A stretch of DNA of 64,000 nucleotides, taken from the NCBI GenBank assembly GCA_008632985.1, contig QPGO01000005.1:951607-1015606 (forward strand), given 5' to 3'. Every line of letters begins with the position of its first letter. Within the stretch, counting starts at the first letter, position 1. The DNA comes from Psammoneis japonica. Taxonomy: Eukaryota. Positions 39,032-60,903 of the stretch are shown piece by piece. A program made the translations under genes and the position numbers. Under the pieces are notes generated by a model, which had not been told where the DNA came from, made no database searches, and worked only from the letters and a program-made list of their open reading frames with translations.

Positions 39032-39216
39032 TGTCGGCGTTTGTCGGCTCTTGTCGGCTCTTGTCGGCGTTTGTCGTACGTTGTCGGGGTTTGTCGGGGC
39101 TTGTCGGGGTTTGTCGGGGTTTGTCGGGGTTTGTCGGATACGACAAAATTTGTCGTACGTCCGACAAAATTTGTCGTACATCCGACAAAATTTGTCGTAT
39201 CCGACAAAATTTGTCG
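39032..39216 (+). repeat. 10-mer TTGTCG-containing tandem repeats followed by four CGACAAAATTTGTCG palindromes
   Basis: 'ttgtcggggt'-type units 39032-39137. Palindromes start at 39141, 39162, 39183 and 39202. Confidence 0.95.
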
Positions 39217-39605
39217 TACGTACGACAAAATCGCCAAAACATTAATTAATAAGTACAGTCTTCGCCGAAAGTTAAATTCATCATATAGCACTGTAGTTGA
39301 TATAACGTGTGTGTTTAGGACACGCCATCGCCAATTAAATGATGATTTTGTCTTATTTTTCGCCAACGGTTGAAATTTGTCTCAAAGGGCGTTTTTCACG
39401 ACAAATCGTCCAATTCATTTATGGGAATGTCGCAATTGGCGACAAAATGCCGTGTGTCCCTGCTGAGAATCGCGCACGGCGGCATTTTCAATTTAGACCG
39501 CGAAACATCAGGGGCGAAGACAGACCATTCGTTTCACTCTTTGTATTGTGTGACGGACGCGCGTCATCATCCGGCATTTTTGCGACGAGCGTTCACAGAA
39601 CGATG

Positions 39606-39812
39606 ATGCCACAGTCAACAACCAAAGTCCCGTCGGCGTTGATTGCACCACCAACATTGCTTGCAACCAATGCAGCACTGCTGCACAATGGGATGATCAG
39701 CTCATGACAAAAAGCACCACAGAAAACAGAAAATCGAAAAAGAGCTCGAGAAAACAAAAATCACAAGGGATTGACGAACGCCACAAGGACAGCGACAACC
39801 ACAAAAAGTCTC
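39606..39812 (+). pseudogene. Mutated duplicate of the upstream region and first ~40 codons of the gene at 60904
   Basis: 39688 'atgggatgatcagctcatgacaaaaagc…aaaagtctc' aligns by eye with 60904 'atgggacgatcagctcatgacgaaaagc…aaaagtctc'. Confidence 0.88.
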
Positions 39813-39814
39813 AA

Positions 39815-40652
39815 GTTGCTGCTCTGCCGCCAGTCATGTGTGCATGTTGTCTGGTTGCACTGTCTTGCATTGGTGCAAGATGCAACAAGTGACCATGGCC
39901 AGTGTGGCTGAGGCAGAGTTTTTCGCAGCTGGTGCTGCTGGAGAGCAAGTGCTCCTGCGCCTTTGCCGCATTGTCAAGGAGCTGGGATTCGCCCAAGTCA
40001 GACTGACTCCCGTGTTTGTTGTCAAGAACAAACTGACCATCAGGGTCACCAACAACTGTGCCCCCACTGAGCGATCCTGTCACATCATTGAGCGATCTTG
40101 CCACATCACCACCCAGTGGTTTGTTGCCCAAAACCAGAGAGAGACAGGCCATGTTGTCGCTGGACACATCCCTGGCATCACCAGCACAAGCAATGCCTGT
40201 GCCCAGGCTCTTGAAACAATGCTGCACACCCACCATGCTCATTGCATGATGGGGCACTGCCTTTGACATTTTGCCACTGAGTCTGATGGCATCTGCTGAA
40301 CGCAGCCCTTTTGCATTGTGTGGTTTCTTTCTGGTTGACTGGAGCCTTCCCCGCAGCCATTTGTTGTGACCATTGTGATCTTCATTGTCCAGTTTGGGCA
40401 CGTTGGGTGAGGGGGGTGTCAGCTGGCAAATGGCGTGGCACTTGGCCAGATTGCATGCACTGGACAAGGTCACAGGCACTTTTGGATGGCAGAGCAGATC
40501 TCAGGTCAAGATCTTCTCCTCACTCTTTCTCGCTGGCATGCATGTTGTCCCTGTTGCTGGTTTGCAGGGAGGCTCTGCATGCTTGTTGCTCTTGCTGTCA
40601 CTGCTCCATCAGTTGCACATGTTTCTTGTGAGCAGCCAGTGGCTGGTTGACA
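39815..40652 (+). mobile_element. Decayed Ty1/copia 3' end: RNase H, polypurine tract and probable 3' LTR
   Basis: 'CMLSGCTVLHWCKMQQVTMASVAEAEFFAAG' and 'RSCHITTQWFVAQ'. PPT GGGTGAGGGGGG (40405-40416), then TG at 40417. The LTR resembles those at 50512-50701 and 60243-60516. Right end tentative. Confidence 0.75.
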
Positions 40653-42369
40653 GAAATTGAAGATGACTGGGTGGAAGAAAACAATGGCTCCTTGCTCCTG
40701 CTGTCTAAACAGCAGATGAGCCTCCATGCAGAGACTGTCACAGGAGCCAAAAGACTGGTGTCATGATGTTGGTGCTGCTGTCATTGTTCTTCTTGTGAAC
40801 CAAGTGGCTCAAAAGCAAGCTGCACTGCACATTGTGCATGGAACTGAGAACACACACAATTGTGTGAGACAAGCCAAAATCTTGTTTAAATCCTGTCACT
40901 CCCCAGTTTGCTTTGGGAGTCTACAGCAACAGATTCTTCAAGGTCAGATTGGACAAAGGCTTGGGATTAAAGTTCCAGAACATCAGAGGGCAGAGGAGGC
41001 TCCAGATCTGGGATCAGCCCCTGTGCTTGCTGAGAATGTCAGTCAGTTTGCGGGAACCTTTGCATGGTGGATGGAGAGGGTGGTGTGTTGCTTGTGTGAC
41101 TTGGAGCGAGGGATGGCAGCACTGTCCACAACTGGCTTGTTGTCCCCAAACATGTGACACATGTCATGAGTTGGGACACCAAGGCAACACAAAGTGATGG
41201 GAAGACCAATGATCTGTTCAACACATGTCCTTGCAGCAACAACCAGAGATCATCCACACATTTCAGTCTCAACTGTTGCTTGTTTCTTGGAGAGCCAATT
41301 GGCCAGAAACTTGTTGAGGAAATGGATGACACCCATGACAGAGCATCCAGTGAGCACTCAATGGAGCAAGTTTGTGTCAACATGGTGGGTCGTGGTGACA
41401 AACTTGCCAAGTGGCTCAGGCATGTCTTGCGAGAGGAACTCTTCTGCCTCCCCACACACAGAGTGAGCCCAGTCGTGCACTGGCTCAGGCAGGTCCAAAC
41501 AGTTGGGTTCCTTGGTGCACACTCGGAGGGCACCATGTTGCATCTTGGACAGGTGTCTGCAGACATGTTTGGCACAATCTAGAAGGCCTTGATGGGGTGC
41601 TGCATGCAAGCTAGACAGGGACATGACTTCCACAGCAATGTCAGTGTGCGACGGAGCAATGCAGCCCTTTGCAGGGAACCAACCAAGGACTGGAGTTCAT
41701 GGATGCCATCGGGTTTGAGCAATTTGGAGGTGTCAAGCTCAGGGTGGACTCCTTTTTCAAGAGGGGAAAGCATGCCAGAGTGAGGCTTTTCTCCAAAGAG
41801 ACATGCACAGTTGTCAACCATGCGCTCAATGCACTTGCAAGGAGCAAGGCACAGGGAGCATCGGAGTCATGAGTGAAGTTTCAACCAAGGTGGAACTCCA
41901 ATGATCTAGCACCCTTGAGCTTGAACTTGCATTTCTCTGTGAGGGTGTTTGCAAAAGCTTGAGGGTCCTTCAAGGTGAAAGCCAGGTTGTCCACATGTGT
42001 TGCCATGTGTTCACATTGGTTGCTCATCAGAGCACACAACATGGTGATCATCACACATCTTTTCATTGTGATTTTCATTCCTTTTGTGGACAATTTTTTT
42101 GTGGTTTCAAACCTCGTTGGTTGTGCAGCTGGCAATGACATGTCAATTGTGACAGATTGACATTTTCATGCTGTGGGATCAGACCCCCCCTCCCCATGAG
42201 GAAAATTGTTTCGCTGTGAAACAGGGGCACGTTTTCACCATGAGAGTGCCCACCCTCTGTCCTTGCAAAACCTGCAAATTAAAATCATTTGCGTTGCACC
42301 ATGAACGTTCCATTTTGTTGTTTGCATTCAAACTAAATGACGCCAACAGAGACAACACCCTAGAGTCTG

Positions 42370-42840
42370 CAGCAGTTGCAGCTCACTTTCTTCAAGTGCC
42401 GCTGCTGGCAACCACCTTGTTCATTGCCAAAAAAGTGCAGAATGTGTTGTGAGAGTGCAGCGTGGATGAGCCAACACCACCAACAGGAGTGGCAACATGG
42501 GCTTGCCGGCACATCCAGTGCCGCTGATTCTGGAACAGGTGAGTTTGCAGCAGGAGCTGCTGCTCCATTGTTTGAAGTGCCGCTGCTCTGTTCTGCCTCA
42601 TTCATTGCCAAAAAGAGCAAAACACATTGTGAGAGTGTTGCATGGATGAACCAACACAACCCATGGGAACGGCAACATGGGTGTGCCAGTGCACCCGACA
42701 CCACTGATTCTGGAGCAGGCAAGTTTGCAGCAGAAGTGCTGTTGCTCCTCTGGCACTGATCCACCTTGTTCATTGCTGAAAAGCACAGAGCACATTGTGA
42801 GAGCATGATGCAGATGAACTGGCATGAACCACAGCACACA
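42370..42840 (+). repeat. Three degenerate ~170-180 bp tandem repeats
   Basis: 'ttcattgc…ttgtgagag…gatga' recurs at ~42420, ~42601 and ~42769. Confidence 0.8.
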
Positions 42841-42979
42841 CTCACCGGTGCATTGGTGCATCTGGCGCAGCTGATTCAGGAGCAACGTAGATGCCGGTGT
42901 GCAGTGTGAGATGTGGAGCCCCCAGCTCCACCCCTGCAACTCAAAGAAAACACAGAAAGAAAGCATGTGAGCAAGCAAA

Positions 42980-43400
42980 AAACCTCCTGTGCTGCGGACG
43001 GTGCACTGATGACATGTTTGGAGCACAGACCAGAAACAGCAGAGAGACTTGGGAAGCCTTTAAAAATGAGCCCAACAGTTCAGGCAACCTTCGATGGGTT
43101 GCCTCCCCACTCTCCACCTCTGCAGTCTTTCTGGATCCGGACACAGAAATTGGAGAAGATGGGTGCAACGCAAGTGAACACATCAAAAACAAACGAAGCT
43201 CTTTTTGTGCATGCCTTTTTTGAAGAGTGCCAATTGTGGTGTTGCAATGAACTTTTCATGTGTGTGATTCTGAGAGCTGCAGGAACAAGCACCGCCTGCA
43301 GTCTTTCTGGATCTGGGTGCAGAAATTGGAGAAGATGGATGTGTTGTTGGCAAATGCATCAAAAACCAATGAACCTCTTTTTGCACACACCTTGTTTGAA
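42980..43400 (+). mobile_element. Penelope-like reverse transcriptase fragment (decayed, internally duplicated)
   Basis: 'LLCCGRCTDDMFG…TWEAFK…GNLRW…SAVFLD' and 'HQKPMNLFLHTP' match YY.RY.DD…V.FLD…YQKPMNL.LY.P after reversing Y->C/H. Confidence 0.65.
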
Positions 43401-46400
43401 CAGTGTAATTTGTGGCAACTTGTGATGATTCTGGACGCAAAACTCTGACATGCACGATTGCACCAATGCTGCAGAAAAGCAAGTTTGTGACGTGTGTGCA
43501 CACAACACACAACAACACACCAGCAGCTCAGCATTCTGGATGTGGCAGATTCATGACAGCACACTCGCGATCACAAAATTCAAGCTGTGCCTGAATGAAG
43601 CCCCGCCTTGACCAACCAGAAGGACAGCAGGTTTTGCCATGCATGGAGCTGCTGTCATCAGCCAATGGGGCAAAGTCTGTGTCACCACCATGGCCAGTTG
43701 TTGATTTGCAGATTTGCAACCACACGCAGGTTCCACGTGAATCACAACAGCACACGCTCTTGTTTTTCAAACTTTGGGGAGAGGGTGTGCTGTTGTGAAG
43801 TGTGCAGAAAATTGCGCATGCAAAACACATGCTGAAAATGCCGTAGACCAACGTGCTGCACAAATCTGGGAAACATGAAGAAAAATGAAGGTGGGTCACG
43901 TGCGTGTGTGAAGTGCTGCAGACTGCACACTGCAAAGACACACACACAAGTGAGGAGGACAAAGTTAAAACCAAGTTCAAATTGATCACGATCAAAAGGA
44001 AACCAAACCATGCATCACAAAAAACAGATTTTGATCTCAATTGAATTAAACATTGCGTGCATTTGATTGAAGCTTGTGCAAGAAAAGTCAATGAGACATC
44101 AGATGAAATGCAAAAAACAGCTTCATTTTGTTGAGCACTTTTGCTGGCATTTTTTTAAATTCTGCTTGTTGACAATTTTTTGACAATGCACATTAAAAGT
44201 TTTGCAAAACAAAGTGGAAACCACTGCATTGCTGCCTCTGATGCTGTTCTGATGCAACCCGATGTCGAGTTCAGCACAACACAGGAAGAAACCTCTGGCG
44301 TGCAAACAATTGGCAAAGCATTCATGCCACCTGAGGCCAGAGCTGCAGAGTCCATGTAGAGCCTTGTGGATGACAAGGATGTGTCCTTCCAGCTCACCAA
44401 ATTTGGGGCCTGCTGGTGCAATGTGCAGTTTCTCTTTGGCTGCAGCTTTGAGACAGGTGTTGCCAATGTCGGTTGCCCATGTCTCTCCAGTTCATTGAGT
44501 TCAGCCAGGAAGATCATCAGCCAAAGACCACAGAGGGGCACCACTTCAGAGCAGACACTGTCAATGGGCAGCACATCTGTGAGGCATCTGTTGTTGACAA
44601 GTTGTGCCTGGCCTTGTGCCTGCTGTCATGCTTGATGTCATGGATGAGGTGGACCCTGATCCTCTTGTGTCTTGCTGGGGCACCGCTGGAGTCCTTGCAG
44701 TGGTGTTCACAATTGTGAAACACCTTGCACTCACCAAGCTGAGTCATCTCAAGGTCTGTTGCAGCTCCCCACTCATGGTTGCCATTGTGTGCTTGTCGAG
44801 GGCCTGTGTGTGCTTGCAGTCCCAGGGCACTTCACAGCCATGCTTGCATCATGGTGCGCAGTGTGAAACAAGCACAGCTTGGTTTGGTTGGCCATGTGGA
44901 ACAGCTTCTTCTGGTGCAGAGCTGTGGTTTGGTGGAAGCATTTCCATCCATTGGTTTCAAGTGAGCCATGCTCACATGCGCAGATGGCACAGGTGATGGC
45001 ATTGTCTTTGGCAATGATGGCAAGAGGTTCAGATGTGATCTCCCCATCTTCCCATTCAAGCCACAACGGGCAGCACCAATGTCATGTCACCAGTCTTTCA
45101 GCTCCTGCAATGGGGTCTTTGCACAGAGACTCACCCACCAATTGGACAGCAGCAAGGAGTCATTGTTTTCTTCCACCCAGTGTGGCTGTGACAAACAAAA
45201 ATGTTGTTCAAATTGTGTTGCTGGTTGAATTGTGCACTTGGGTCATGTTGGCATTGAGGCTGTGGCTTGTGGGTCTGAGCTTGTTGCTGCAACAACAGCA
45301 CCAAGACTTGTGCAAAACAGATTGTTGACTCTCATGATGGCGGGCCTGTTTTGCACTGCATCAGTGTCCTGATCCACAGCACCAGCCACACATTCAGTGA
45401 GACAGCAAGTCAGTCATGGGCACCATGCTGCTGCTCTGCACTTCAAAGAGCCACACAAGCAAAATGCAACCCTCTCATTTCACCACATCCATGAGGCAAC
45501 AATTGCTTCAGGTTTTGTGCCCAGTTTGTGGGCTGCACTCTCTGGAAATGCTGAGACAGTGGTGTCTCAAAGTTTGATGATGAATGTGGAGCAACCCAGA
45601 AAAATTTGATTGAAAGACAGAAGCAGAAATGACAACACAAAATGTCAACAACACCTCAAAGCTTAACAGAAAGTTCTGACTGGGCAGTGGATTGACCCAT
45701 GCACTGTCATGGCTGTTGGTTGTGTGTGTTGGTCTCTCTCAACATTTCACATGTGCTGTCTGTCTGTCCCCACTGCTGGCTTAAAAAGTCTGCCTGCAGG
45801 CCCATTTGTGGCATGCCAGCTCATGTTTCATGCAAGAGAAAGACATGTGAAGTCTGTCCAAGTGACACAGCCAGATTGCGCTCCTTGCCATTTGCCGCTG
45901 CACTTGCCACACCATGCACGTGCATGTCGCCAATGACGCCAACAAAAATTTCATGACATGCTGGGGCAGCAGTTGCTTTTGTGTGGATCCGGGTTCTTGT
46001 CAGCTGTGCTCATGCTTGTTTGAGCTGACTCAGCAAACAGCCCCTCTCAGCGCAGTGGACCAGCTTGCCATTTGCTTCTCACAGTGCTGCTTGGCTTCCA
46101 GAAATCAACACAAACCCACAATCATCCCCTGCACACAGGACACAGGTGTCAAAGCAGCACAAGAACAATGAGTGATGGTGTGTGTTTGAGCACCGCCTGT
46201 GTGCCAGCTGTGCATCATCATGTGCTCAATGGCGGTGCGCCACAGCAGTGCCAGCAGGGAGTCAACCCATTGCCCCTTCTTGGCCACACATCGCTGCCAC
46301 TTGCTCCTCGCAAAATGTGATCTGGCTCCCTGATGTGGACAAACTTGTTGCAGCCAAGCAGATGTGCAGAGGCAAGCTTTTTGCCACTGCTTTGTTCTCT

Positions 46401-47778
46401 TTTGCATTTCATTTTTCAGCTCCTGGTTGCTTTGATCACATCCTCCATTTTGTTGCAAGCCTGCCAGTGGCAGCAGCTGCTTTCCAACAACATGCTTTCA
46501 CTTGCCAAAGATTGCAGCACTTGCAAGGCTGTTGCGTCCAATCACAAGAACCCACAGAATCTGCAGCACAAATGGTTTGCCTGGTGCATGCAGATTGTGG
46601 TGGCACTGCAAAGAGACGTGTGTGGTTTGCAGGCATGAAGCCCACGTCCCCTCCCAGCCAGAACAAGAATGCCAAGCAGGAAGAGGTCTGTGAAACGCAA
46701 AACAACAACAGCGCCAAAGTGCTCTCTTCTCTTTGCAAGACGTGCAAAGGAGATCTGGACCATGGAGACAATGTGTCAGTGAAGAGGGTCATTCCTGCGT
46801 GGACAGCAGATGACTTCCAGGTTGTGAGCCTTGACATCGCTTGGCACAAGAAGGCAGCCATCTGCAGAATTGTGAAACATCAAAAAATCTCTTCAGCACA
46901 TTGTTGTCTTGATGCCAGCAGTGAGTGCTTGTGGCACACCCACCTCTGTTCTGTTGATGCCATTGATGCACAAATCATTGTTTGCTTTGTTGCTTTCATT
47001 GGTGTTGTCTGCCGACGTTGACCGCACTCTCACAATGTCGACCATGAGAGGTGGGCGTGGCCAGAGAATGTCCAGGAGCTCAAGAGTGTGTTGCTTGCTG
47101 CCCACAGCAACCAGGTGGAGCATGGCTTGTGACATGGGAGGTGGCAACAAGACCCTGAAGTGCTGGACTGAGAAAATGTTGTGTCAACGCACACCCATGG
47201 TGCATTTCCGTGTTGGCCACCTGTTGCTTTGGGTGAGAAGAAGAAGCCACGGTCATTGTGCAAAGCCAGCGGCCAACATGATGAGCACTCTGCTTCTTGT
47301 GCATGCATTCTCCACAGCATGCTCTGCCACTAAAATGACCCCCTCACAAGCTGCACTCTCTTTTTTCCTCCCCGCAAAAAGGGGGTCGACACAAGCAAAG
47401 GAGCCTTGCCACCGAGGTGTGATGAGATCGGAACAGAAAAGAGAGGAAATGAAATGCGAGACATGACAATGGCGCGCTCTCGAGAAGAAGGAACCTGAAT
47501 CCGACTGTCAGATTAAAATGACCACAGTTTGATCGAACAACACACGAAAAAGAACAACCATTGCGAGTTGAGAATTCGCCAAGGCGAGCGGAATTTCATT
47601 TTGTGACGTGGGCGCTTCAACTAAAAAAATCGAAGCAAAAATGTACTAGAGTACAAATTCTACGTACCGGTAGTACACATATCATAACGTACAAGATTCC
47701 TTCGACCAGCTTTTTTCAGTGACACGCTTGTTCTTTTCGACATGATGTCCATGCTGTACTGTACGCGACCGACCAACC

Positions 47779-48279
47779 ATGAAGTTTCTCGCTTTCTTCT
47801 TATTCTTGACGACTGTCGTCGTTGATGCCAAGAACGGTGCTGGCATTGCCACTGTCCTCAGGGGCGCACAAGCATTGAAGGAAGGAGGTTTCGGATTTGA
47901 CACCCTTCGTTGCGCGGAATTAGGAGAGGAGGGGTTTACGAGTAGGAGTGTCATCATATACGAACGATCCGGCACTTGCTGCATTCCTGGTGGCAGGGGA
48001 AACGACCTTTTGATTGGAGGCTGTGGGGATGATCGAAGGGTGGGAGGAGGAGGAGGAGGAAACGATGTGTTGCATGGTGGTCGTGACGAATGTGCCAAGC
48101 TTAGGGATGGTGGACCTATATGTCTCTGCCAAGATCCAGCAGTTCCCACAACGTGCAGTCTAGTTATCCCAAACAGCTGGGAGGAAGCTGCCAAAAATGC
48201 TGTCGAAAGCGCCAAAGCAGCTCTCCAGTGCGACGTTGAAGGTGGGCAGGTTGTTGTCAACTGCGGCGATCCCAAGTAG
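47779..48279 (+). CDS. Small secreted protein with RTX/hemolysin-type Ca-binding GGxGxD repeats
   Basis: Signal peptide 'MKFLAFFLFLTTVVVDA'. 'GGRGNDLLIGGCGDD…GGGGNDVLHGG'. TpA and CpG both present, TAG stop. Confidence 0.7.
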   Translation: MKFLAFFLFLTTVVVDAKNGAGIATVLRGAQALKEGGFGFDTLRCAELGEEGFTSRSVIIYERSGTCCIPGGRGNDLLIGGCGDDRRVGGGGGGNDVLHGGRDECAKLRDGGPICLCQDPAVPTTCSLVIPNSWEEAAKNAVESAKAALQCDVEGGQVVVNCGDPK

Positions 48280-49079
48280 TTGGTAATAGCATCAACGCTG
48301 CAGGAAGGGAACGGAAAGTTAAATAACATCATACACGAAAACAAAACCAGAAAGCTCCTCGGACTCCTCGAGACTATGTCGTGATTTCATCTGTCAGCAG
48401 AGGGCACATATAAGAAGCAGTCGGTTAAGAGCTGCACGTGTGCAGCGATACATTGAAAATATTAGAAAGGTCCAGATTGTAAATGGTACATCAAATTGAG
48501 AAGTTGCCTCTTGCAGGGTGACAGTTGCAGACAATCTAGCCACCAACATTCACAACTTACGCGTCACCACATAGCATACAGGAGGACAATTCGCGATATA
48601 CTGTAGAGCACAAAACATGCTCCAACTCAAGCATGCATCGTCTCGCTTATACTGGCATCCTTCATTGCTGGGCATCCTCAGGCTTGTTTAACCACACGAG
48701 TACTGTAGGACCATCCCGTCTAGCAAAAAAGAATCTCGGATTGCCAAGAATCTCCCAAGCTCACATCTGATGAATGCACGAGGCACCAAAGAATTCCGTG
48801 TGTTCTGTCTCCAACAAAGCTTTTTATGCAACACTGTCATGCAAGCAGTCTTCCTTCTTTAATTTTCTCAATTGAAAAATTTGCATGGACTGGCACCATT
48901 GGTGTGTTCCCTCCCATTGTTTTCAAATGTTGTTGGTGTCGTCTTTTGCCAATAAAATGCAAAATCATCATTGTCGACTGTGCCAGTCCTGTCTCCTGTC
49001 TCACCAAGCTCCTGAGCTCAGCTCCAAAAAGTTGTTTTGAAATTTTGGAAGCTGAGGCACACTCTTTGTCTCACCCATT

Positions 49080-49330
49080 GCAAAACACAACAATTGAGCA
49101 AAATTTCTTTCCCTGTGCAGATGTCATGGGTTGCCACCAAATCCATCCAAAGCCCAGGTGGCCACACTTCATGAGCTCATCTTAGTTTCTCATGATGGGT
49201 GGGAATCTTGAGCACCAGCATGACTTGACACTGCTGACATTCATGGTCAATGCAATTGATGACACTGGTGCAGTGCATCATGGGAGAAAAGAGGAGCACA
49301 AAACTGTCAGTGTGGTGAGCTGAAAGATTT
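49080..49330 (-). pseudogene. Decayed SET-domain gene fragment
   Basis: 'HTDSFVLLFSP…SVINCIDH' (NYINH-like) and 'GLWMDLVATHDICTGKEILLNC' (ATRDI..GEEI..NY-like). Confidence 0.5.
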
Positions 49331-50511
49331 CAAACCATGTCTCCAACTCACAATCTTTTGGATCCTCACAGCAAAGCAAGTGGCCACAACACGTGGATGT
49401 TGCTGATGCCATTGTTTCACCTTGCAGTGTTGGGCCCACTGTGCTTGTCTGTGTGCTTCTCAGCCATTGCACTTGAAGAATGTGGCAATGTTGCTCACAT
49501 GATTGTGCAGATTGAAGTGGGGCAAGGAATTCTTGCATGGACAAACTTTGTCGGAGGTCGTTGTCTTGGCCAATGGCAACTTTGTTTGGGAGAGCCACGA
49601 CAGCATTTTTTGGGCCATTGTCAAAACACTTCTTGTGTTTTTGGCTGCCAGCCAATGCTGAAGCCCTCCCACTTGCTTTCCATTGCAATGACTGATCAGC
49701 TGCAGAGGGTGAGATGTGCACTGTCACCAAGCTGGCGTGTGCCTTTGACAAGCTCCCATTGTTCCACATTGTGGCACACTGCCCCAATGAACAGCAACCT
49801 CAATTGAGAACTTCATCAAGTGGTGCCAGGCATGTGGAGTTGGCTGTTTGTGAGTTTGAAGCATGATGGCAGAAATGAGAGGGAGGAGGTGCATCCACCT
49901 GCTGACAAGCTCCCCAAACTTTGCAAAGCCACTCTGTGTTTGCTCCATGTTCAACACAATTTTGCAGCAACAGGTTGTGCCACGGCACTCTGCTGCACTG
50001 GCTTCCAGTGATTCCTGCATCTTGGCATGGCCTTGTGCTGGGCCACAATGTGGTGCATTTTTTTCAACAGCCTTGTCAACAGCTCCAAGCAAATGCAAAC
50101 ACCAGCACAGTGTCAGTGCCAAAGGTTGGCAACAAATGAGGAGCAGCTGGTGAGTGATTTGAGGTGCAATGACATGACAAGATGTGAAGAAAAGGGCATG
50201 CAAAAGCTTGAGCAAGAAACTCCACACCTCAGAGAATGAAGCAAGGTGGCCAAAACACTTGGATGTTGCTGGCGCTGTTGCTCTGATGTCTGTTGACTTC
50301 TTTGCCATTGGCTGCACAGCCTTGAAGCTGAGCACAAAATCACATTTTTTTGTTTTTCTGTCCCCGGAGCAACGGTGCTGTGTTTGAACAATTTGCCGCC
50401 AACACAAGGCACCACCCACAACAACCATTTAAAGTGCACACAATGCATGGCAAAAAGCATGCCAAGAAACCATCAAGATGCGTGCTTTTCTTTGCAGCTG
50501 GTGCTGTGAAG

Positions 50512-50701
50512 TGACAGAACACCAAAGGGCAATGAGGACAACAGCATGACAGACTCCCCAAGCACTGGGATTGTGATGACATGAGTGCCAGTGGAAAGAA
50601 GTGAGAGGCAGATCTCAGAGAGATCTGCTCGTCTGTCTGGATGACAGTCTGGTCATCATCTGTGCACAGTCAGTCTCCATCACAGGACAGGTGGGCTTGC
50701 A
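50512..50701 (-). repeat. 3' LTR (truncated), preceded by polypurine tract AGGGGAGGG (50710-50702)
   Basis: Begins TG at 50701 on the minus strand. Aligns with 60332-60516, including a long near-identical core 'gaaagaagtgagaggcagatctcagagagatctgctcgtc'. Confidence 0.85.
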
Positions 50702-53700
50702 CCCTCCCCTGTGATCTGCAACATCTAAAAACAGAAGACAGTGCAAATCAATCCAAAGAGTGGGAATGATGCAAACAGAGAGGCCAAAGGACACAACAAG
50801 TGTCCAAGCCCAACACGCAACAAACAAGGGGGCAATGTGCAGCAGGGGGGGCACCATGGAAAAAACATCAACGGCAGTGTCCCATCATGCGTTGAGCATG
50901 GCAAGCATGGAGCACCCATCCTGGAGCCTTGGCAAGGTTGTTGCTGGGATTGGACAATGCCAGGGACATGTCATGCAACAATCTTGCCTGCTTTTTTTCC
51001 ATTCTTGGGTCAAAAAGAACCCAGTGTCAACATGACGTGAGCACTTGGTTGGAACGGAATGGCTGATTTGGGAGAAACCCAATTCATGGAGAACATGACA
51101 AAGACAAAGGATGTGCTCAGCAGCAGTGCCAGCATCATGGAACTTGGCTTCCACAGAGCTTGCAGCAGTCACCAATTGAGTCTTGCACCAAATGGAAATG
51201 GCAGCACCCGCCAACATGCAAGCATGACCTGCAGTGGAACGGTGGTCATGAAGGTCATTGCCACAGGCAGCATCCAGGAAAACAACAAGTTGATGATCGC
51301 ACTCAGTGATGGGAAAGGATGAAAGGGTTGGGTCAGCAGTCAATTGCTCACATGAGGACAGGGAGGCAGACTGGAGTCACGCTTGGGTTTCTTGTGGCTC
51401 AATTCCCAATGCTTGGTTTGCCAAAGATGCTTGCAAGCACCCTTCAGTGCACCACAATGTGCTTCAGCAGGGCAGGCAGAGAACTTGGAAAGGGCAGTGA
51501 TTGCACACCCAATGTCCAATTGACAGACAACATGTGTGTGCAGCAATTCACCAAGGAGGGTGTGGCATCCAAAACCGGCAGCCTCTTCAAGCTCCGCATG
51601 CTCTGGTGTGCCTTCAGTGGGACCAACAGCAGCCCACAATTTGCAAATGGAGTCAACACTGCCAGGAACTGGAGTTGCCTCAAAGTTGTCAGTGAGTTCC
51701 TTGGCAGTCAGTTTTGCCCAACCATGTGAGAGACACACTCAGTCAATGCAGCCGTGGATGGCAACACCAATGGGGTCATCATGCTGGTGAACATCCATGC
51801 CATTGAAGTCTTCAATCAACCCGAGATGCTTGAATGGTGGGGTGGCTTCCAAAGAATGTTGGAGGGCCTTGCCAATCTCAGCACAGATTGTGATCACATG
51901 GGATTCTTCAGGACAGGCAATCAAGAAGTCATTGACCTGGTGAAGCAACAAAATTTTGTGTCCTTCGAATGCAGTGGAATGGACGACACACTTGTCATGC
52001 ACAGCATTGCGGAACAACGGAGTCACACCCATCAGTGGTTCTCCCAGAGCATGCCGGCTTCTGGGTGTCCTTGGAGTGCATGTTGCATTGGCAACACCAA
52101 ACTTCTGTCCAGCTCAACACACCAAAATGTTGGGACTTGCACCATGTTGCATGCACATCATCAACAGCAACATGGACAGAACACTGGACAACTCATGGCA
52201 GCCACCAGAGCAAAGAACATCCTTTGGATGGGCTGTTCAACACAAAAGGAGTGCGTTGAATGGAGACAGTGGAGAACAGATGCTGCACGTTGGGAGCCAT
52301 CACAACATTGACAAGAACGTCTCATGCCATCATGCTTGAGGTCATGCTGCCAATGTGGACAAAGGATGATGGCATCCTTGGGGTGCTTGATCAAGGCACC
52401 AAACACACCCAGTTTATGGAATTGATCCAATTGCTTGAACTTGCCTGCACGCCATTCAGAGGCCGTGCAGGTGGCTTCTTGTTGAGATGGTGCCAAGCAA
52501 AGGCACCCAGTGCCTGCTCCTCCAGAATGACAGCTTGAGAGGATGTCACATGGATGTTGACAACACTGTTGTCACAGTCAATGGAGACAGAGACAGGGGG
52601 AGGAACATTGTTGTCATTGATGTCAGAGAAATCAACACCTGGGTGGCAAATCGCAGCAATGGCATGGGTGTCAGCGTGTGTTGGCTCCAGGACATGCTCA
52701 TCATCAGGATCCAGAGTGGATGAAAAAATGTCATGTTCCGCCAGGGCACATTGCAAAGCCTCAGAGTCAAGGCAGTGTCCAGGTGCAAGTTCAATTTCAA
52801 AATGAGTCACTTTCCAAAGTCACAGGCCTGTTGCAGATGTTTGACTGCATCTTCAGCAGCAAAGACATGTTGATCATCAACCAAAACAATGCAAGCACCC
52901 AGAATCTTGTTGCATGTCACCTTCAAGGATGAGAAGAGATGGGCAGCAGGAGTGCCACACCCAACATTCAAGACAAAAACTTGTTGGTGCAATTCATCCG
53001 CAGTCAAGGGCAAGCCAAAGTTGGGATCAGCAAAGGGGCCTTTCATTGCATGCATGATTGTCTTGGCAAAAGGGTTGCCACCAAAGTGGAGCTCATCCGC
53101 AGTTCTTTCCTTGGTCTCAGCAGGGAATGGCTTGCCAGCCGTGTGTTCCAAGTGAGCCACATTCAGATGAATGGGCTCATGACCCAAATCATTCATGCCC
53201 TCATCAAAGCTGATGTGCTTGGCAAGCTTGACCTGAGACGTCTCAGTGTCACACCACAAGACACTCTTTGTGGCATCCGGGAGGTGACCAAGGAACAGGC
53301 CCTTGTGGGAGATGGTCCAGAATTTTTCCGGATGGTGATTCGAGGCATGAAGCCAAACACAACAACCAAATGTTCAGAGAGCAGTGAAGTCATCTTTTTG
53401 ACCAGCAGCAAGAGCAATCAGGGCCACAGTTTGTCCTTGGGAAGATGTGGCATTCTTGATGCAAAGACAATGGTGAAAAGCATGAGGCCAAAATTTGATG
53501 GGCAAAATTGGCACCTGTCAGCATGGCCTGAATGGCACTTGCAATGGTCAAATGACTCCGTTCAACTGGGCCACTTTGGTTTGGAGCATCTTTTCTAGTG
53601 TGGGACAAATTGCACAATGGAAGTCATCCTCAAAAAGTTGCCGAGCTGCCGGATTGTCACACAGTTCACCACCTTGATCCAGAAAAACACACTTGTCTGG

Positions 53701-55499
53701 ACATTTTGGCAAGTGCTCTTCCAGAAAGTGGCAAACCCAATTCAATGGAGTGGCCTTGGGAACACGAGCAGCACCATGGAAACACTTCATAAAATGATCA
53801 TAAAAACAGCGATCCAACGTGTCTCACCATTCAAGCCAACACAGTTCTTGGTGCACGTTCCTTGTTCTTAGAGTGCAATCCAGAGAAAGAAAAGTCCACA
53901 GTTGGACCTTGGCAGGGTTGAGTGGCAGTCAAAGTGGTGTTCAGACCAGTGGGTTCCTTGGTCTGATTGGCTCAGATGCATGTGGGACAAGCACTGGGGG
54001 ATGAACCATGAGCAAACTTTGGAACACCATCAATGCACTCATGAGCATGATGCAAGCAGTGATCACTGGGATGCTCAAGTCATTGATGCCATGAAAAATG
54101 TTCCGTGTTGGCCTTGAGAGATTGGACAGGGGTGTTCTTTCCTCAGCATGCGCTCTTCAAATGGCACATTCTGACAGACACAGGGAATCAACTTCCGCTC
54201 CACATGCAGGGCATCAGTTGGTGTCAATGACGTGTTTCAATCATGTGTGCCAAAACTGCCTCACATTCTTCAGCAAAGGATGGATCACTGGTCTTGAGAA
54301 ACTCAATTGATGCATCATGTTGGCAGGGTCTGTCATGCAAGGTGGGATCACTTGATTGACAAGGCAATCATGAAACAAGTCCACAATGTTCTTCTTGGGT
54401 TGAGCATGCTGAACGGATCCAGATCAAATGTGGAGTCTGCACAGAGCACATTCAGTGATGTGTGGAGATGCAGCATTGAGACATGTGGTTGGAATTCACA
54501 ACAGATCTCTGCAACAGACGTGGGAGCAGCCTTTGTGAGAAGGTCTCGGGAGGTGCCATGGTTTCACCTGGTGAAAACATTTTTGGTCATGCACACACAC
54601 ATGCAGAAATCTGGCATGTTTCTACGAGCAAGAAAAATGCAGGGAAAGGAAGAAAAAAATGCTTTCAGGAACAAAAGATGAGGCTTGCTTGATCAGCTCA
54701 CAAAGCAAATGAATTGAAACAGAAAGAGTGGTGCAGAATTTGGTGGCACAGTGCAAGGCCACATCTGGGACACCAACAATCCAGGTGTCACACTGGACGT
54801 CAAGATTTTTTGAAATAAAACCCATCATCTTCTCCATTTGGTCCAAGATTGTGCTAATTTGTCAAGTCTGTGTGTGTGTGAAATGTTCAACAACAAACAT
54901 CTGCATTCCCCAATTTAGCCATTTGCCACCCCTTCCAACAAGCCTCATGTGTTCATTTGATTTTGTGTCAATTTCTGGATGGTGTGTCAATCAATTTTCT
55001 GCATCAAAATCACCGCACACATTCCTCAAGGTGGACTCTGCTTGCCTTCTAAATTTTCTCTCCCCGCCCATTCCATCCTTCCGTCCACGACGCCTCCCCC
55101 CATTGCACCTTTTTTCTTGTCCTCCATTTCCACCCTGTGTCACTAAATCCCCAAGTGATTGTTGCTGCACATGCTGTTCCGTTCGATTCTCTTCTTGACA
55201 CTCCTTTGTCTCTGCACATTGGCCATGTTGTCTGATGGTCTTGTTTGTCCTTTCTTTTCTGAACGCGGTCTCAGCAGGCATGTTGCAACCAACTGCCTCC
55301 ATTCCGCTGTTCCAACCAAGTCTTTTGGTTGTCTTTGTTGCAGACAACGTGGTTTTGACTCCGAAAACAATGTGCAGCATCACCTGTCTTGGCACTGCAC
55401 TGCTGCATCTGTTCTCCCTTCCCCATTGACACAGTTGCGCCACAAAACCCAATCATCTTCCACATCCGGTGGGACATCTCTTTCCTCTCATCCTCTGGA

Positions 55500-57900
55500 T
55501 TCCACCTCTGTTGCCTCCCTTGGGTCCCAAACCGACAAACCCAAATGCCCCCATTGCCGTGTCCCCTTTTCCAACATTGCCCTTCATCTGCAAAAGCACT
55601 TGCCCTGCTGCAAAATGGAGGAAATGTCCCTTTGCCGGTTTGCCGCATCTTCAAATGCTGCAAATTCATTGCCCCCTCCAGACGACGATTCACTTGATGA
55701 CCATGATGATCCTGCTGTGTTTGGTTTTTCTGATGATGATGCCCAGCCTCCCCTTCCCGAAGTCCTTTGGAATCCAGATCCACCTCCTCCCACACAATCC
55801 AACAATTCTTCTCCAGCTGGCCCTCCCTCTGCCAGAAATGGACTGCGCCCACCCTCAGTCAGACACTCTGGTTGATTGTGTTCTGCCGCCAATGTTGCTG
55901 CCGCCAGTGCAGCCACCAAAAATGCCCACCAATTTGTTTTGTTTGCAGATGATGGTGTGTCTGCCCTTGGAGAGGACAGTCCTGTGGATGTCCCTGAGTC
56001 AGTTGGAGCTGACCACATTGATGGCAGTTGCGGGCCTCCCTCAATCTCATGTCCAACAGAAGAGCCTGTTCCTCCTCCCCCCGGTGTTGAATCCATTTTA
56101 GCTTCTTCCTTTGATCAACACAATCCTTTGGGACCGGCGCATGATGTCGCCCCTGATGAGGACTTCGATGTCCCTCCAGTCTGCTCACCCAGCATTCTGC
56201 CAGTTGACAAAGCAATGAGAATTTTGCACAAAGAGCATGCAGAAAAAAAATTGGACATGTCAAAGCCCCCCATCACGACCACTGTGGTGATGAAGCAACT
56301 CCTTGGGCCATTTCCCAATGTCCCTCTCCCCCGACTGCTGCTGTGGTGCTTGAATGCAACAATCCAATGCAGCAACAGAGGGGTTGTCCAAAATGTTGTC
56401 GCTTCCCACCTTTCCCAGTTTGCAGTTTCACCAAGACCCTTCAGGATCTTTTTGCTGAGCCAGTGTTCTGTGATCTTTCCAAGTTGCAGGTTGATCCAAA
56501 TGATGTTTGGTCACCGCATCCCCCCTCCGACGGCAATTTGGATTCCAGCGCTGGCCAGGCTGATGGTGTTGAGATGTTGTTTCTGGATTGTCCTGGTGAC
56601 TGGCAACTGTCCACTCAAAGTCAAGACATGGGTGACGGAGAGTGGCAACAACATTGCTCCAATGCCAAGGAAACGGCCTCTGATTTTCATGTTCACCTTT
56701 TTAATTGTTTGGACAAGACCAGAGTCAATGTGGTCAACCCTCACAGGATGGAGCCTGCAATGTGCTCACTTGCCATGATTCAAGAGGATGCATGCCATGA
56801 CTGTTGTTGTTGGCATCCACTTGGTTTCATGCCTGACATGGACAAGAAAGACAAGAAAGACAAGTCTGGGTGCCTTGTTGTTGCCAACTGCCACCGCATT
56901 CTCAAGGAGGTTCTCCATGGGCTGCTTCATTGCCAGGCAAATTCACCCATTGTTTGTGCAACAATGGGCAATCAATGCCGCCATGTCAGAGCCATGATGC
57001 ATTGCAACTCCCTGTTGGGGGACATCCTTGATCAAGAACACATTTGGGGCAGAGTCATGAGCCAAAGCAAGACCAAGCAGTTGTCTCACAACTGCCATGT
57101 GCCCTCTCACCTTTCTGATGATCCCCTCCATGCTTGCCAGTTCTTCAACCAAGCTTTCATTGAGTTGCTCACTGTTGCTGCGTTGGGTCTGGATCCCAAG
57201 GATGACAACAGCCATTGGCACCAGCATGTTAAAAACATTTCCCGGAAGCATTGCACAATGACCGCTAAAAAAAGGCTGAGAATGAGCTTGCTTCATCCCT
57301 CATTTGCTGAATGACCACATGCTCCAAAATGTTGAGGAAAGTGTTTGGACAGCATGCAGTTGACAATGCATGCTTTCCACTCAACATGGGTGACAACCCA
57401 CGTGGTGCATTTGGCATGACCATTGCTGACACAATGCATGTGATGGAGGCAGGTGTTGTCCCTCAAATGATGGAGGCAACAGTTGGAGAGATGTCTGCCA
57501 AACAGAAAGAGGAATGTGACGGATTGCATTGGAGCCATTCTGCACAGCCTGGTGTCATCCAGGTCAGAGACATGTGACTGTCCGTGCATTCGAGTCAATG
57601 GGGGACTTTCCACACTTGGTCAACTTAGAACAAAGTTGCCACGTAGAAAAAAGACAGCACCAAGCTGCCCACTTTTGGAAGGCTTGAACTTTCATTTGAT
57701 GTCAGTCCCAAGGTTGTTCCCAGTGGAATGCCTTGGCTTGATGGCACCGTCTCTTTTCTTGGTGTGCTTGTGAAGCAGGTGCCTGTCGACACCACCTCCC
57801 CATGATGGATTGTCTGGACAGGCAGGAACAAAAAATGATGCGTGCCTCCATTTGTGGGCATGCCCACAAAACATCACATCCAGTGAAACAACAATGGTGC
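55500..57900 (+). mobile_element. Decayed Plavaka-like transposase gene nested in the copia element
   Basis: C2H2-like 'CPHCRVPFSNIALHL', 'LFNCLDKT…MEP', 'WHPLGFMPD', 'NCHRILKEVL', 'LLGD', 'DNACF…GDNPRGAFG…DTMHVMEAG'. Confidence 0.65.
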
Positions 57901-58771
57901 CTTCAGGACACTCGTTGGACAGCATCTCCTCAAGTTGGTTCTGTGCCCCAATGTCATCAAAAAGCATCCGCTCATTGAAAGAATGCATGTTCCTGTGATG
58001 GGAGCGATTCACAACAACCATGTCTCAGTGACAATGTGATGCTTTGGTGCCATTGGAGAGCCAAAAGAGAAAGTGTGAAATTGTGGACAGGTGAGCTCCC
58101 TTGTGCACACACACACGTGTCAGAGAAGTGGGTTGGATCAGTTTGGGCAACAGAGAGAGCAGTTGGAGAGAGATGGCATCGGGTGGTTGAGGGAATGATT
58201 GATTGAGATGTGATTGAATGAAAAAGAGGCAATGAGAGATGCAGATTTGTGCAAAAGAACAGGGGGTTTGACACAATTTTTTAAACCAAATGAAACTGAT
58301 GTTGCATCAGGAAACAGGTGCAATGCATGCATTGGGATGAGCACACAAGATGCATTTTTTGACGTTGATTCAAACAATGTGGCAATCTTCATTGAGGTGT
58401 TGGATTGGCTTGCAATGAAGCACAACTCAAAACAGTGGAAGGTTGACAGAAATTCAAACATGGCAGGTTGGAAATGAGCACTCAAAAATGACACAAACAA
58501 ATGTTTAAATCAAGAGAGGATGCGCGAGCAACAACAAAACAGAGAAAATCACATGCAAAGTGCACTCATTTCGAAGCTCACCTGTTCATAAACTGACAGG
58601 GCAAGGACGGCAGTTGAACACAAGAGGCAGCCATTGGGAAGGACAAAAAGATGGAGGAGACAGTTGTCACAGGAGCAACAGAGGGAGGAAGCAAAACTTT
58701 GAGCAGCAAGTCAGGTTGAGAAGGGCATGACAAAGAGTTCCTGATGAACCAACAACCTGTGATTTTCCTGT

Positions 58772-59420
58772 GTGGTGTCACGCAAAGTTGCCATGAGTCC
58801 TGCGGTGGTGGCCTTGTTCAATGCACAAAGAAACAAACATGGGGAATTAAACAGATTCCAGTTTGCAGGTGGGGACTCAAGTTCGGTGGTGACTCCCATG
58901 GAGGGATGTCTTGTGTTGGATCGTGCACCAGCAGTGGGCAAGAAATTGATGGGATCAATGCTGACAAAGGCAATCAATGAAAGTGTTTGGCTGCTTCACA
59001 AGTTTATGATCTTTGACCAAGAACTCGCCACAGGAGGAGATTGCATGAAAATGGTTCTGCAGGAGTCAAGGAGCATGGCATCTTCGCCGGAGGTGTTCTG
59101 GGAAGAATGCAAAGAGGTGTTCAGAACCAAACTCAACCGCAAGAGGAACAATGTGCAGGACAACATTGGGAGGAGAATGACAGGTGAGCAGCTGTGTGCG
59201 TGCCTTCAATTGTGTTGGAGGCGATTGTCCAATGGGGTGAGTGTCACTTCCTTTGATTTTGTCTGTGCAGTGGCTGCTTTAGAGGGATCGCTGGTGGAGT
59301 GCAAGGATTTGACAAAGGGAAGAGCTGACAAGGACACATGCGGGTGGTTGTTCTTGGAAACTGTGGTGCCGACGGTGGTGGGACAAGCACAGTTTGGTGG
59401 AAGCACAGCCGCTCCAAGAG
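58772..59420 (+). pseudogene. Decayed ORF, probably an accessory gene of the nested DNA transposon
   Basis: Protein-like stretch 'FWEECKEVFRTKLNRKRNNVQDNI' with a possible relict intron ('aggtgag' ~59181). Family not recognised. Confidence 0.35.
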
Positions 59421-60230
59421 TGGCTTTCCATTTTGTTGGAGACATTTGCTCTGCCAGTGCACTTGAACTGCTGCAACAAGGTGATGAACACGGGACAGAG
59501 AAGTTGGAAAAGACAATGTTGCAAGGAGAAGAAGGAAGCTGACAGTGCAAGATGCTGCTCCTGCAAAGTGCACAGCGCAGGCAGCGGGGGAATCGGCGAA
59601 GAGGAGCCAAGGATGGAGCAAGGATGGGATCAAGAAGTGCAATGATCCACATCAGTGGTTGGTGAAAAACAGAGAGAACAACCAAGGATTTGGTGCATGG
59701 TTCAAGGAGAGAAGGTGAGAGAAGACAAACTTGTCCAGGGAGGAAAACAAGAAGCACAAAAGAGAGGAAAAGAGAAAGGAGAGAGAGGGAGGATGGGCAG
59801 CGCCAATGGGTGAGGACCTGCCATTGCAGGCGTTGGCTGCCAGCAACAGAGCGGAAGCAATTGCCACCATGGCAACCAACCAAACTGGTGCATAAACGTA
59901 AATTGCAGCAAACGACAAAATCTAAAAAAAAAAACGAAAAAAAAACATTCTGCAAAGCAGCTCAAAAACAAGAACATGTGGCAGCAGGAAATTTGAATGT
60001 GAGGGCAACACAGCAAAGAGACAAAATGCAGGGCGGCTTGGTGGACAAGGAGGGTGGATCACAAGTGGCAACAAATGTGCCCAAAGAACAAGAAACCGCA
60101 AATGTTAAATGTGGTGTGGAGGATCACCATTGAGTGCAAGAATGATCACACTTGAAAGTGGGAAGAAGCAATTTGGGTGCCAGAAGCTCACAAACTTGCG
60201 CAGTTCTCACATTGTGTTCAAGGATAGATT

Positions 60231-60242
60231 TGGCTCATAAGT
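60231..60242 (-). other. Primer binding site complementary to the tRNA-Met anticodon arm (half-tRNA type)
   Basis: Minus strand reads TGTTGTCA|ACTTATGAGCCA. The plus-strand 'ggctcataa' matches the Met tRNA anticodon-loop sequence. Confidence 0.6.
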
Positions 60243-60516
60243 TGACAACAATCTGGGATTGCAGTCAACAAATGCCCAGATTGTGACAGACAGTCAGAAC
60301 CAGATTGTTGGCACCCCAGATGCACGGCCCCTGACAGAGCACCAAAGGGCAGTGAGGGTGACAGTGTGACAGACTCCCCAAGCACTGGGACTGTGACAAC
60401 ATGAGTGCCAGCAGAAAGAAGTGAGAGGCAGATCTCAGAGAGATCTGCTCGTCCATCTAGATGGTCTGGTCATCATCCATGTGCAATTTGTCCATCGCAG
60501 GATGGGTGGGCTGGCA
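60243..60516 (-). repeat. 5' LTR (274 bp, TG…CA)
   Basis: Starts TGCCAGCCC at 60516, ends TGTCA at 60243 next to the PBS. Homologous to 50512-50701. Confidence 0.8.
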
Positions 60517-60903
60517 CGAAGTTGATGACAGAGATGAGCAACAGGCGGCTGCTCTGTGAAAATCTCATCCGCTGTGTGACCAGCAGAGCCCGAGAGGAGG
60601 GATGACAGAGACACAAACCTCAAAATGTGCAGCAAGTTAAGAATGCTCTCTGTGAGATACAACAAACAGCAAAACTCCATGTTTCAACCAAGCCTGTCTT
60701 CACATGACATGTGCTGAACAAAAAAATGCATGCGCGACTTGCTTACGAGATTTTCAAGTGGCGCTGACACGCGCGTGACGAAGCCCACCAACGCCACATG
60801 CCAACAACACTTCCAAATTCCATCGTCTTTGTTGTTTTAGTTTGCATCGCCCACGCACATCACTCGCAATTAACGTAGGCTAGTCTGTTTCTCACGGTAT
60901 ACA

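Follow-up and report, generated by a model that had tools for sequence, protein, structure and literature searches.

A footprint of TpA-directed A:T>G:C mutation in transposon relics of the diatom Psammoneis japonica

In the chlorarachniophyte Bigelowiella natans, integrated viral and foreign DNA undergoes A:T>G:C hypermutation targeted at the dinucleotide TpA (Mettrop et al., 10.64898/2026.01.13.699255). According to the preprint, two integrated viral regions had acquired 231 de novo mutations, of which 230 were A>G or T>C changes, each of these at TpA; the rate in mutation-accumulation lines was about 6e-7 per site per generation, raised about 1000-fold, and in some lines only. The long-term footprint consists of clusters depleted in TpA and enriched in CpA and TpG, in which reverse-transcriptase and DDE Pfam domains are enriched. 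A single-copy region can be the target, and an ADAT2-like adenine deaminase has been proposed (10.64898/2026.01.13.699255). A footprint of this kind is described here in a stretch of 64,000 nucleotides, hereafter the window, of the diatom Psammoneis japonica (assembly GCA_008632985.1, contig QPGO01000005.1, positions 951,607 to 1,015,606 of the forward strand). Relics of a retroelement assigned to copia and of a Plavaka-like DNA transposon, as well as DNA adjoining them, have lost nearly all TpA in this region.

The window and the B. natans regions, as described in the preprint, share the change of TpA to TpG or CpA, its occurrence on either strand, the predominance of transitions and the restriction to particular inserted regions. 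They differ in the host, a rhizarian in one case and a diatom in the other, and in the type of data, B. natans providing direct rates from mutation-accumulation lines, the window a footprint alone. Depletion is mild in the B. natans viral regions (Rho TpA 0.45), whereas the window relics are near saturation (0.04–0.06). The preference for a 3' pyrimidine, the independence from CpG decay and the readout of the process as tyrosine to cysteine or histidine changes are found here, and were not seen in the main text of the preprint; the words "diatom" and "CpG" do not occur in its text as available (10.64898/2026.01.13.699255). The kind of process was already known from B. natans; the diatom lineage, the target motif, the CpG independence and the protein readout are added here. 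A literature search, which did not extend to most subscription journals, brought up no description of diatom transposons depleted in TpA.

Fungal repeat-induced point mutation (RIP) is similarly a hypermutation of mobile DNA by transitions in a dinucleotide context, acting on both strands until coding capacity is destroyed. In contrast to the process described here, RIP changes CpA to TpA and creates TpA, whereas the window has lost TpA and gained CpA. RIP also depends on sequence duplication and on a sexual phase; in the window, single-copy DNA has been hit and a high-copy element has been spared.

TpA-poor blocks of the window

Dinucleotide profiles of the window were computed at 1-kb resolution and, more finely, at 200 bp. 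Four sharply bounded TpA-poor blocks, called B1 to B4, were found at 2.6–11.2, 35.8–38.2, 39.5–47.6 and 48.8–60.8 kb. B1 (2556–11197; edges at 2555 and 11197, from TpA positions) holds 30 TpA (observed/expected ratio, o/e, 0.058), with o/e values of 0.26 for CpG, 1.95 for TG and 1.78 for CA. B2 (35813–38169) holds 9 TpA (o/e 0.062), and features a CpG o/e of 0.78 and TG and CA values of 1.4. B3, taken as 39545–47331 for statistics, has 21 TpA (o/e 0.043) and a CpG o/e of 0.25; its full TpA-poor extent is 39545–47620, CpG being kept up to about 39.8 kb. B4, taken as 48850–60500 for statistics, has 35 TpA (o/e 0.045) and a CpG o/e of 0.23; the block extends in full over 48825–60800, and houses the copia and Plavaka-like relics. 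The genic stretch used for comparison (11300–35700) contains 961 TpA (o/e 0.576), with a CpG o/e of 0.98. At the genic rate, 340, 93, 307 and 459 TpA are expected in B1 to B4, respectively (Poisson P 1e-29 to 1e-147). The longest gap without TA measures 1689 bp (50726–52415).

The steps in TpA density at 11197, 35812, 47622 and 48721 each take about 100 bp or less. B3 and B4 are separated by an island of normal composition (47622–48721), TpA dense throughout, in which TpA o/e is 0.55 and CpG o/e 0.875, as computed over 47350–48800. At the right edge of B4, just upstream of the gene starting at 60874, CpG is back from about 60.45 kb on, some 300–400 bp before TpA, which returns at about 60.84 kb.

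TG and CA are in excess in B1, B3 and B4 (o/e 1.8–1.95), less so in B2 (1.4), and measure 1.15–1.18 in genic DNA. The summed fraction of pyrimidine–purine steps (YpR; Y, pyrimidine; R, purine) is 0.23–0.255 in the blocks versus 0.241 in genic DNA, i.e. is unchanged, and the twelve remaining dinucleotides are normal in the blocks. This is the pattern expected from transitions of TA and CG to TG and CA. A first-pass annotation of the window, made from the letters, had reported that TpA is nearly absent from blocks derived from transposable elements, as is indeed the case (o/e 0.04–0.06 vs 0.58 genic), and its counts were reproduced (none in 50730–52410, 22 in 39600–47400, 10 in the genic interval 30001–30300). 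The same annotation had grouped the block at 35.7–38.3 kb with the others; the grouping holds for the loss of TpA, but not for CpG, which is kept there (o/e 0.78).

The polarity of the change was read at conserved codons of the window copia sequences, taking 13 diatom-type copia polyproteins as outgroups. Columns were kept if at least 6 outgroups align and at least 70% agree, which gave 633 codon columns. None of the 21 conserved tyrosines is left: 10 read as Cys (TGY), 8 as His (CAY) and 3 as other residues. Nearly all these columns (19/21) fall in the copia relic found at 50871–54139 on the minus strand. As Cys and His outcomes are near-equal in number (10 vs 8), both DNA strands have been hit. 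Outside TpA, A>G changes in second codon position were found in 2 of 151 columns (N>S 1/15, K>R 1/24, D>G 0/37, E>G 0/24, H>R 0/31, Q>R 0/20), and T>C changes in first position in 5 of 94 (Phe>Leu 2/35, Ser>Pro 3/37, Cys>Arg 0/9, Trp>Arg 0/13). The effect extends across codon borders: codons of conserved Thr, Ile, Lys, Asn or Met show a first-position A>G change in 21 of 24 columns when preceded by T, versus 7 of 85 columns otherwise. The A:T>G:C change is hence restricted to the TpA dinucleotide, and the changes are almost only transitions. The 3 conserved Tyr columns of the Plavaka-like relic read as Cys (2) and His (1), with no Tyr left; the occurrence of the same change in a DNA transposon argues against mechanisms tied to reverse transcription.

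The mutated peptides quoted in the first-pass annotation are all present: CEHMATHVDN (41986–42015, minus strand), KALHGL (44348–44365, minus strand), GCHTLLGELLHTH (51532–51570, minus strand), CCGRCTDD (42990–43013, plus strand) and KCKH (7643–7654 and 50091–50102, plus strand). They had been ascribed to five unrelated element types. Two of the five stand, copia being confirmed and the Plavaka-like type being supported through homologs; the Penelope and CRE-like types were not verified.

TpA loss coexists with the decay of methylated CpG in B1, B3 and B4, where CpG o/e is 0.23–0.26 and about 75% of CpG has been lost. Conserved Arg residues mark this decay, which is a separate process: of 45 such columns in the window copia sequences, 11 are kept and 29 have become Cys, His, Gln, Trp or TGA. 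Methyl-CpG decay cannot remove TpA. Moreover, TpA has been lost and CpG kept in B2, at the edges at 39.5–39.8 kb and 60.45–60.8 kb, and in the environmental copies described below. The loss of TpA without matching CpG loss indicates that the two processes are separable. TpA loss seems to proceed faster than CpG decay, and to saturate first.

A TpA gradient in environmental copia copies

The signature is present in a second genome. The nearest relative of the window copia, protein P0006, contains 0.9% Tyr, compared to 2.9–4.6% in named diatom proteins. Relatives were collected as 35 loci (L001–L035) from metagenome contigs of two sources; all belong to one copia family, with 69–100% protein identity. 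TpA o/e in the matched part varies from 0.00 (L008, L029), through values of 0.25–0.55, up to 0.76–0.83 (L006, L014, L028), while CpG o/e stays within 0.54–0.95 across the family, CpG loss not following the TpA gradient. Where the contig extends past the element the flanks are TpA-normal and the copia part is depleted, as in L001, L002, L032 and L033. In L008, the whole 5.5-kb contig (1–5501) contains 4 TpA (o/e 0.01) with a CpG o/e of 0.69, a state as in B2.

Replacement of tyrosines follows the gradient. At Tyr sites conserved in the outgroups, the Tyr/Cys/His counts are 17/0/0 in L028 and 16/1/0 in L006, and become 0/15/6 in L008, 0/9/0 in L029 and 0/6/5 in L024, the remaining copies falling between these extremes; in all environmental copies, 72–92% of the control residues stay unchanged. 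Because Tyr to Cys or His changes track the TpA gradient, the TpA-normal state is ancestral, and the loss progressive. The view that these elements were always poor in TpA, by ancestral composition or by selection against TA, is refuted: a reverse transcriptase could not function with none of 21 conserved tyrosines kept, named-diatom relatives have the higher Tyr contents given above, and the least-mutated environmental copies have a TpA o/e of about 0.8 and keep their tyrosines. The first-pass annotation had made its proposal depend on whether intact copies are equally TpA-free, and less-mutated copies of this related family turned out to be TpA-normal.

Copy-to-consensus comparisons were made on this family since the window contains few paralogs. 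A consensus of the 8 TpA-richest copies served as reference, and was compared with the 4 most depleted copies. Of the 188 cells with TA in the reference, 7 are still TA, 101 are TG, 63 are CA, and 17 (9%) have other letters. Per strand-site, A>G occurred at 47.6% of TpA, 11.2% of ApA, 16.6% of CpA and 8.3% of GpA, so that the enrichment of A>G at TpA over the three other contexts, which had been put forward as a further check, is strong. CpG retention is 60–67% in every non-rich group, regardless of TpA loss.

These figures bear on error-prone repair synthesis of the Pol eta type in heterochromatin, which had been listed among the candidates by the first-pass annotation. Pol eta is known for A>G changes at WA motifs (W, A or T), favouring TA, and would account for the preferred dinucleotide. 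The candidate fits poorly, since ApA is not hit along with TpA: in the window N>S and K>R changes are rare (1/15 and 1/24), and in the most depleted environmental copies A>G at ApA is 11% versus 48% at TpA. Loss of 95% of the sites with almost no transversions is also unlike patch repair, and Pol eta is a highly improbable source of the footprint.

Nucleotides flanking TpA influence its loss. The 95 TpA left in the window blocks include 60 YTAR sites (TTAA 26, CTAG 13, CTAA/TTAG 21), 35 sites in which only one side fits, and no RTAY; the corresponding figures for the 961 genic TpA are 163, 475 and 323. In a multiplicative model, relative loss rates are TAA 1 : TAG 1.9 : TAC 5.2 : TAT 5.8. The same order was observed in the environmental family, where TpA retention is 22% at RTAY, 42% at one-sided and 69% at YTAR sites in copies of the mid group, and 13%, 26% and 52%, respectively, in the more-depleted group. 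The strand hit varies accordingly: YTAY sites changed to TG 249 times and to CA 178 times, RTAR sites to CA 47 times and to TG 14 times (odds ratio 4.7). The process thus prefers T-A-Y, read on the strand in which A is mutated, by a factor of about 1.5 to 5.

Environmental proteins of another type have a comparable make-up. P0029, which matches the Plavaka profile and measures 1290 aa, contains 1 Tyr, 4.7% His and 2.7% Cys; P0126 is similar. The process described here has probably struck both.

Mutation in place and the proposed process

Two sets of duplicated sequences in the window are informative on where the changes arose. Repeat copies at 50512–50702 and 60332–60517, both on the plus strand, are 84% identical. 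They differ at 26 of 186 aligned columns, 24 differences being transitions; 16 of the 26 are accounted for by 8 adjacent double differences, in which TG in one copy faces CA in the other. Such flips are expected when the same ancestral YpR step was hit independently in each copy, on opposite strands. The second set is made by a gene-fragment copy (39685–39812, plus strand), which is 78% identical to the 5' part of a gene of the window (60901–61021). Over 137 aligned columns, the 3 TA of the gene correspond to TG, CA and GA (1 each) in the copy, and its 13 CG to TG (3), CA (6) or CG (4 kept). The source gene lies in normal DNA and is unmutated; only the copy inside the TpA-poor zone is mutated.

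Hyper-editing of A to I at the RNA level, fixed by reverse transcription and re-insertion, could be envisaged because retroelements dominate the blocks, and because editing of the ADAR type prefers a 5' U (10.64898/2026.01.13.699255). It is scarcely credible in the light of the duplicated sequences, which show opposite outcomes at 8 sites between repeat copies of one locus. Moreover, the DNA-transposon relic, the copy of a host-gene fragment and non-coding parts are equally affected, the block edges take in DNA which does not belong to elements, and both strands have been hit within single copies (Cys 10 and His 8 in the window, Cys 15 and His 6 in L008).

Agreement with sequencing reads was checked on contigs built from reads of run X1, at a word depth of 60–69. 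The number of letters differing from the window is 0 in 33001–36467, 6 in 36469–38346, 0 in 39448–40674, 2 in 45152–49123, 1 in 49125–50618, and 0 in both 51068–52068 and 52326–53000; the read comparison gave 1077 places with other letters overall. Single-copy parts account for 9 differences, among which CG faces TG or CA in 6 and TA faces TG or CA in 2, the latter being the one hint of de novo change in these data. The 6 located in B2 lie within 1.9 kb, and correspond to 5 CG versus CA or TG, and 1 CA versus TA. The read-derived contigs thus carry TG or CA, rather than TA, as does the assembly; TA in the raw reads had been named in the first-pass annotation as a finding which would refute its proposal, and this check came out in its favour.

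A sequencing or assembly artefact, such as the miscalling of modified bases as G or C, is hardly tenable. Methylated motifs can cause systematic errors in long-read consensus sequences, and a single sample is the origin of all the read runs available. Run X1 may derive from the sample of the assembly itself, and its agreement with the TpA-poor stretches at depth 60–69 rules out assembly or polishing errors, not errors of the platform. The same blocks feature frameshifts, stops and the decay of Arg to Cys, His or stop codons, and the signature recurs in 35 environmental contigs, from other assemblies and two sources. Its presence in these independent contigs removes the remaining doubt.

TpA depletion occurs only in inserted or degenerate DNA, with local boundaries, and the host-gene fragment copied inside a block was also hit. 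B2 and the stretches at 45.7–47.3 and 48.8–50.3 kb are single copy at a likeness of at least 80%, and are mutated. An element resembling a miniature inverted-repeat transposable element (MITE) at 38319–39465, present in about 60 copies, is spared. Targeting hence does not seem to be simply by repetition. For duplication as a target criterion, it has to be considered that the mutated stretches are single copy now, and that the MITE-like element may simply be young. The terms "repeat-targeted" and "reverse RIP", used in the first-pass annotation, find no support in this form, single-copy stretches and a gene-fragment copy being mutated and a ~60-copy element untouched. A chromatin mark, or a mark of foreign DNA, may rather direct it.

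The interpretation favoured here, to which a probability of roughly 0.85 is given, is that a context-specific process turned T:A pairs of TpA into C:G in place in these relics; the estimate concerns the process, not the enzyme. The copia and Plavaka-like relics, and the non-transposon DNA adjoining them, would have been mutated where they reside. A>G on the top strand would yield TpG, A>G on the bottom strand CpA, and the process would continue up to the loss of about 95% of TpA, and stop no further than about 100 bp from the block edges. With all Tyr codons destroyed, its effect would be the irreversible inactivation of mobile DNA. The proposal of the first-pass annotation, a near-saturating A:T>G:C change at TpA of either strand separate from CpG decay, is supported in this respect by the protein tests, the genic paralog, the flips between repeat copies and the graded environmental family.

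Several points weigh against this interpretation, or blur its details. Three of the 21 conserved Tyr columns changed to residues other than Cys or His. The A>G background of 17% at CpA in the most depleted copies shows that polarisation based on a consensus is noisy. The environmental contigs are known from metagenome sequence alone, with no taxon attached. The 3'-pyrimidine preference in the window assumes that ancestral elements had the tetranucleotide usage of genic DNA; in the environmental family it amounts to no more than about 1.5- to 3-fold, the relatedness of the copies makes the counts pseudo-replicated, and only 4 sites represent the RTAR class. Finally, the read runs belong to one sample and study, perhaps the source of the assembly, and are not independent.

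As for chemistry, the best guess is that a deaminase of the TadA/ADAT type converts adenine to hypoxanthine in DNA, which is rated at somewhat less than even odds. TadA and ADAT, as ADAR and the fungal enzymes of A-to-I RNA editing, produce an A>G outcome and have T or U directly 5' of the target; in contrast to the process described here, their natural substrates are RNA. The 5' T of the target matches U33-A34 in tRNA, the bacterial TadA substrate reads U-A-C, and early base editors derived from TadA preferred Y-A-C. Eukaryotic ADAT2/3 substrates mostly have a purine after A34, a mismatch with T-A-Y which speaks against this chemistry. To our knowledge, activity on DNA is known only for engineered TadA, besides reports on ADAT2. 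The latter concern amphioxus and trypanosomes, and are cited in the B. natans preprint (10.64898/2026.01.13.699255).

All counts presented are strand-symmetric, so that the attacked base of the T:A pair is indistinguishable, and the blocks are sharply bounded, as chromatin domains are. Both features would also suit a process lacking a deaminase, in which a modified thymine (5-hydroxymethyluracil, 5hmU, or a base-J-like residue, marking silenced DNA) or a modified adenine at TpA is mispaired or misrepaired. In dinoflagellates, 5hmU is reported to be a mark of repeats, with a preference for TpA and TpC. We know of no such modification of T or A in diatoms; moreover, 5hmU formed from T pairs with A, and near-saturating T>C changes would not be expected from it. 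The modified-base alternative is considered unlikely.

A broader and more tentative suggestion is that diatoms and chlorarachniophytes share a dedicated natural DNA adenine editor acting on T-A-pyrimidine, before and independently of the decay of methylated cytosine, as a counterpart of RIP and APOBEC spanning the stramenopile, alveolate and rhizarian (SAR) lineages. The targets of such an editor would be foreign DNA and DNA silenced only recently, and by erasing every Tyr codon and TA-containing signals it would permanently kill mobile elements. If the process is the same as in B. natans, TpA-directed editing of invading DNA would span distant SAR lineages, including the main primary producers of the ocean, and would be a widespread defence or mutational hazard. 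It may be either a defence or the by-product of a chromatin mark. TpA o/e, combined with Tyr to Cys or His changes at conserved positions, provides a cheap readout for surveying genomes and metagenomes, and a comparative route to the enzyme. Transposon annotation is affected, since mutated relics escape Pfam (2 of 104 open reading frames, ORFs, matched), and insertion ages based on divergence would be inflated. A natural adenine editor of double-stranded DNA with a defined context would be of biotechnological interest, if one exists.

Relics, genes and other features of the window

Pfam searches on the 104 stop-to-stop ORFs of the blocks gave 2 transposon-related matches, of which only one had E < 0.001. 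The two are a weak RVT_2 match (E 0.003; 44126–44491, minus strand) and SH3_retrovirus. No Pfam family was found in three read-through frames of 40.7–45.2 kb, with stops entered as X. Relics were identified through homologous proteins. The near-complete copia (Ty1-type) pol relic at 50871–54139 (minus strand) is interrupted by several frameshifts and stops. It is matched by 13 diatom-type copia polyproteins (best E 2.8e-51, 44–48% identity), the best named relatives being from Nitzschia inconspicua and Cylindrotheca fusiformis. The relic aligns collinearly with residues 191–1291 of the 1295-aa polyprotein P0003, and the matching polyproteins carry PF07727, PF13976 and PF25597. Judged by these alignments, the relic is a copia element, with an RVT_2-type pol and the integrase/RNase H order of copia. 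A second copia fragment, corresponding to the RNase H end, was located by polyprotein alignment at 39823–40257 (plus strand). The 40.3–45.7 kb part of B3 is high copy by read depth; the block contains nested retroelement relics, whose reverse-transcriptase motifs read KALHGL and ATHVDN. No homolog of the Penelope-like ORF at 42910–43422 was found among longer proteins.

The relic of a DNA transposase at 55957–57570 (plus strand) has 193 homologs (best E 4.5e-52). The Plavaka family PF18759 was above cut-off in 2 of 12 homologs scanned, and below cut-off in 1; the window ORF itself has no Pfam match. The label Plavaka-like (KDZ-type) is thus supported through the homologs.

B2 is single copy, its word depth (62–69) being equal to that of neighbouring genes. 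No Pfam family was found in it, and its ORF P0016 has no homolog at near lengths. It contains long Tyr-free ORFs, one with a signal-peptide-like start, another acidic with 9.4% Cys.

The MITE-like insertion between B2 and B3 (38319–39465) features an inverted repeat (38321–38736 / 39460–39042), with terminal inverted repeats starting with GGGACACACGGCATTTTGTCGC, subterminal CGACAAAATTTGTCG repeats, and arrays of ACGAC and CGTTTGTCGG. Its summed depth in run X1 is 3100–4260, compared to about 63, i.e. 50–70 times single copy. TpA is normal (o/e 0.58) and CpG in excess (o/e 1.70) in the stretch containing it (38200–39540), suggesting that the element is young or active.

The genes flanking the blocks consist of long, rarely interrupted ORFs. 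They encode an ABC transporter, a fructosamine kinase, an Ariadne-type RBR ligase, ClpB, a histone deacetylase, an RPE65-type oxygenase, and CRAL-TRIO and Mpv17 proteins. The nearest Atlas clusters of the RPE65-type oxygenase are mostly from Bacillariophyta; together with the named relatives of the copia relic, they point to a diatom-like host, and not to Bigelowiella.

A second read run, X2, listed as "DNA?", covers 33001–35067, 38777–38996, 39685–39726 and 47903–48408 of the 20 kb compared. Inside the CRAL-TRIO gene the X2 contig skips 114 bases at 33458–33573, with CT..AC ends, corresponding to GT..AG on the minus strand; run X2 thus behaves like RNA data. In the island between B3 and B4 (47622–48721), ORFs of 234 aa (minus strand) and 177 aa (plus strand) were found, with no family for either, and the X2 contig over 47903–48408 has a depth of 381. 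No Pfam, copia or Plavaka match was obtained in B1, where the 8278–9645 region is GC-rich (0.56–0.58) and made by degenerate tandem-like repeats, which match each other at 66–80% identity.

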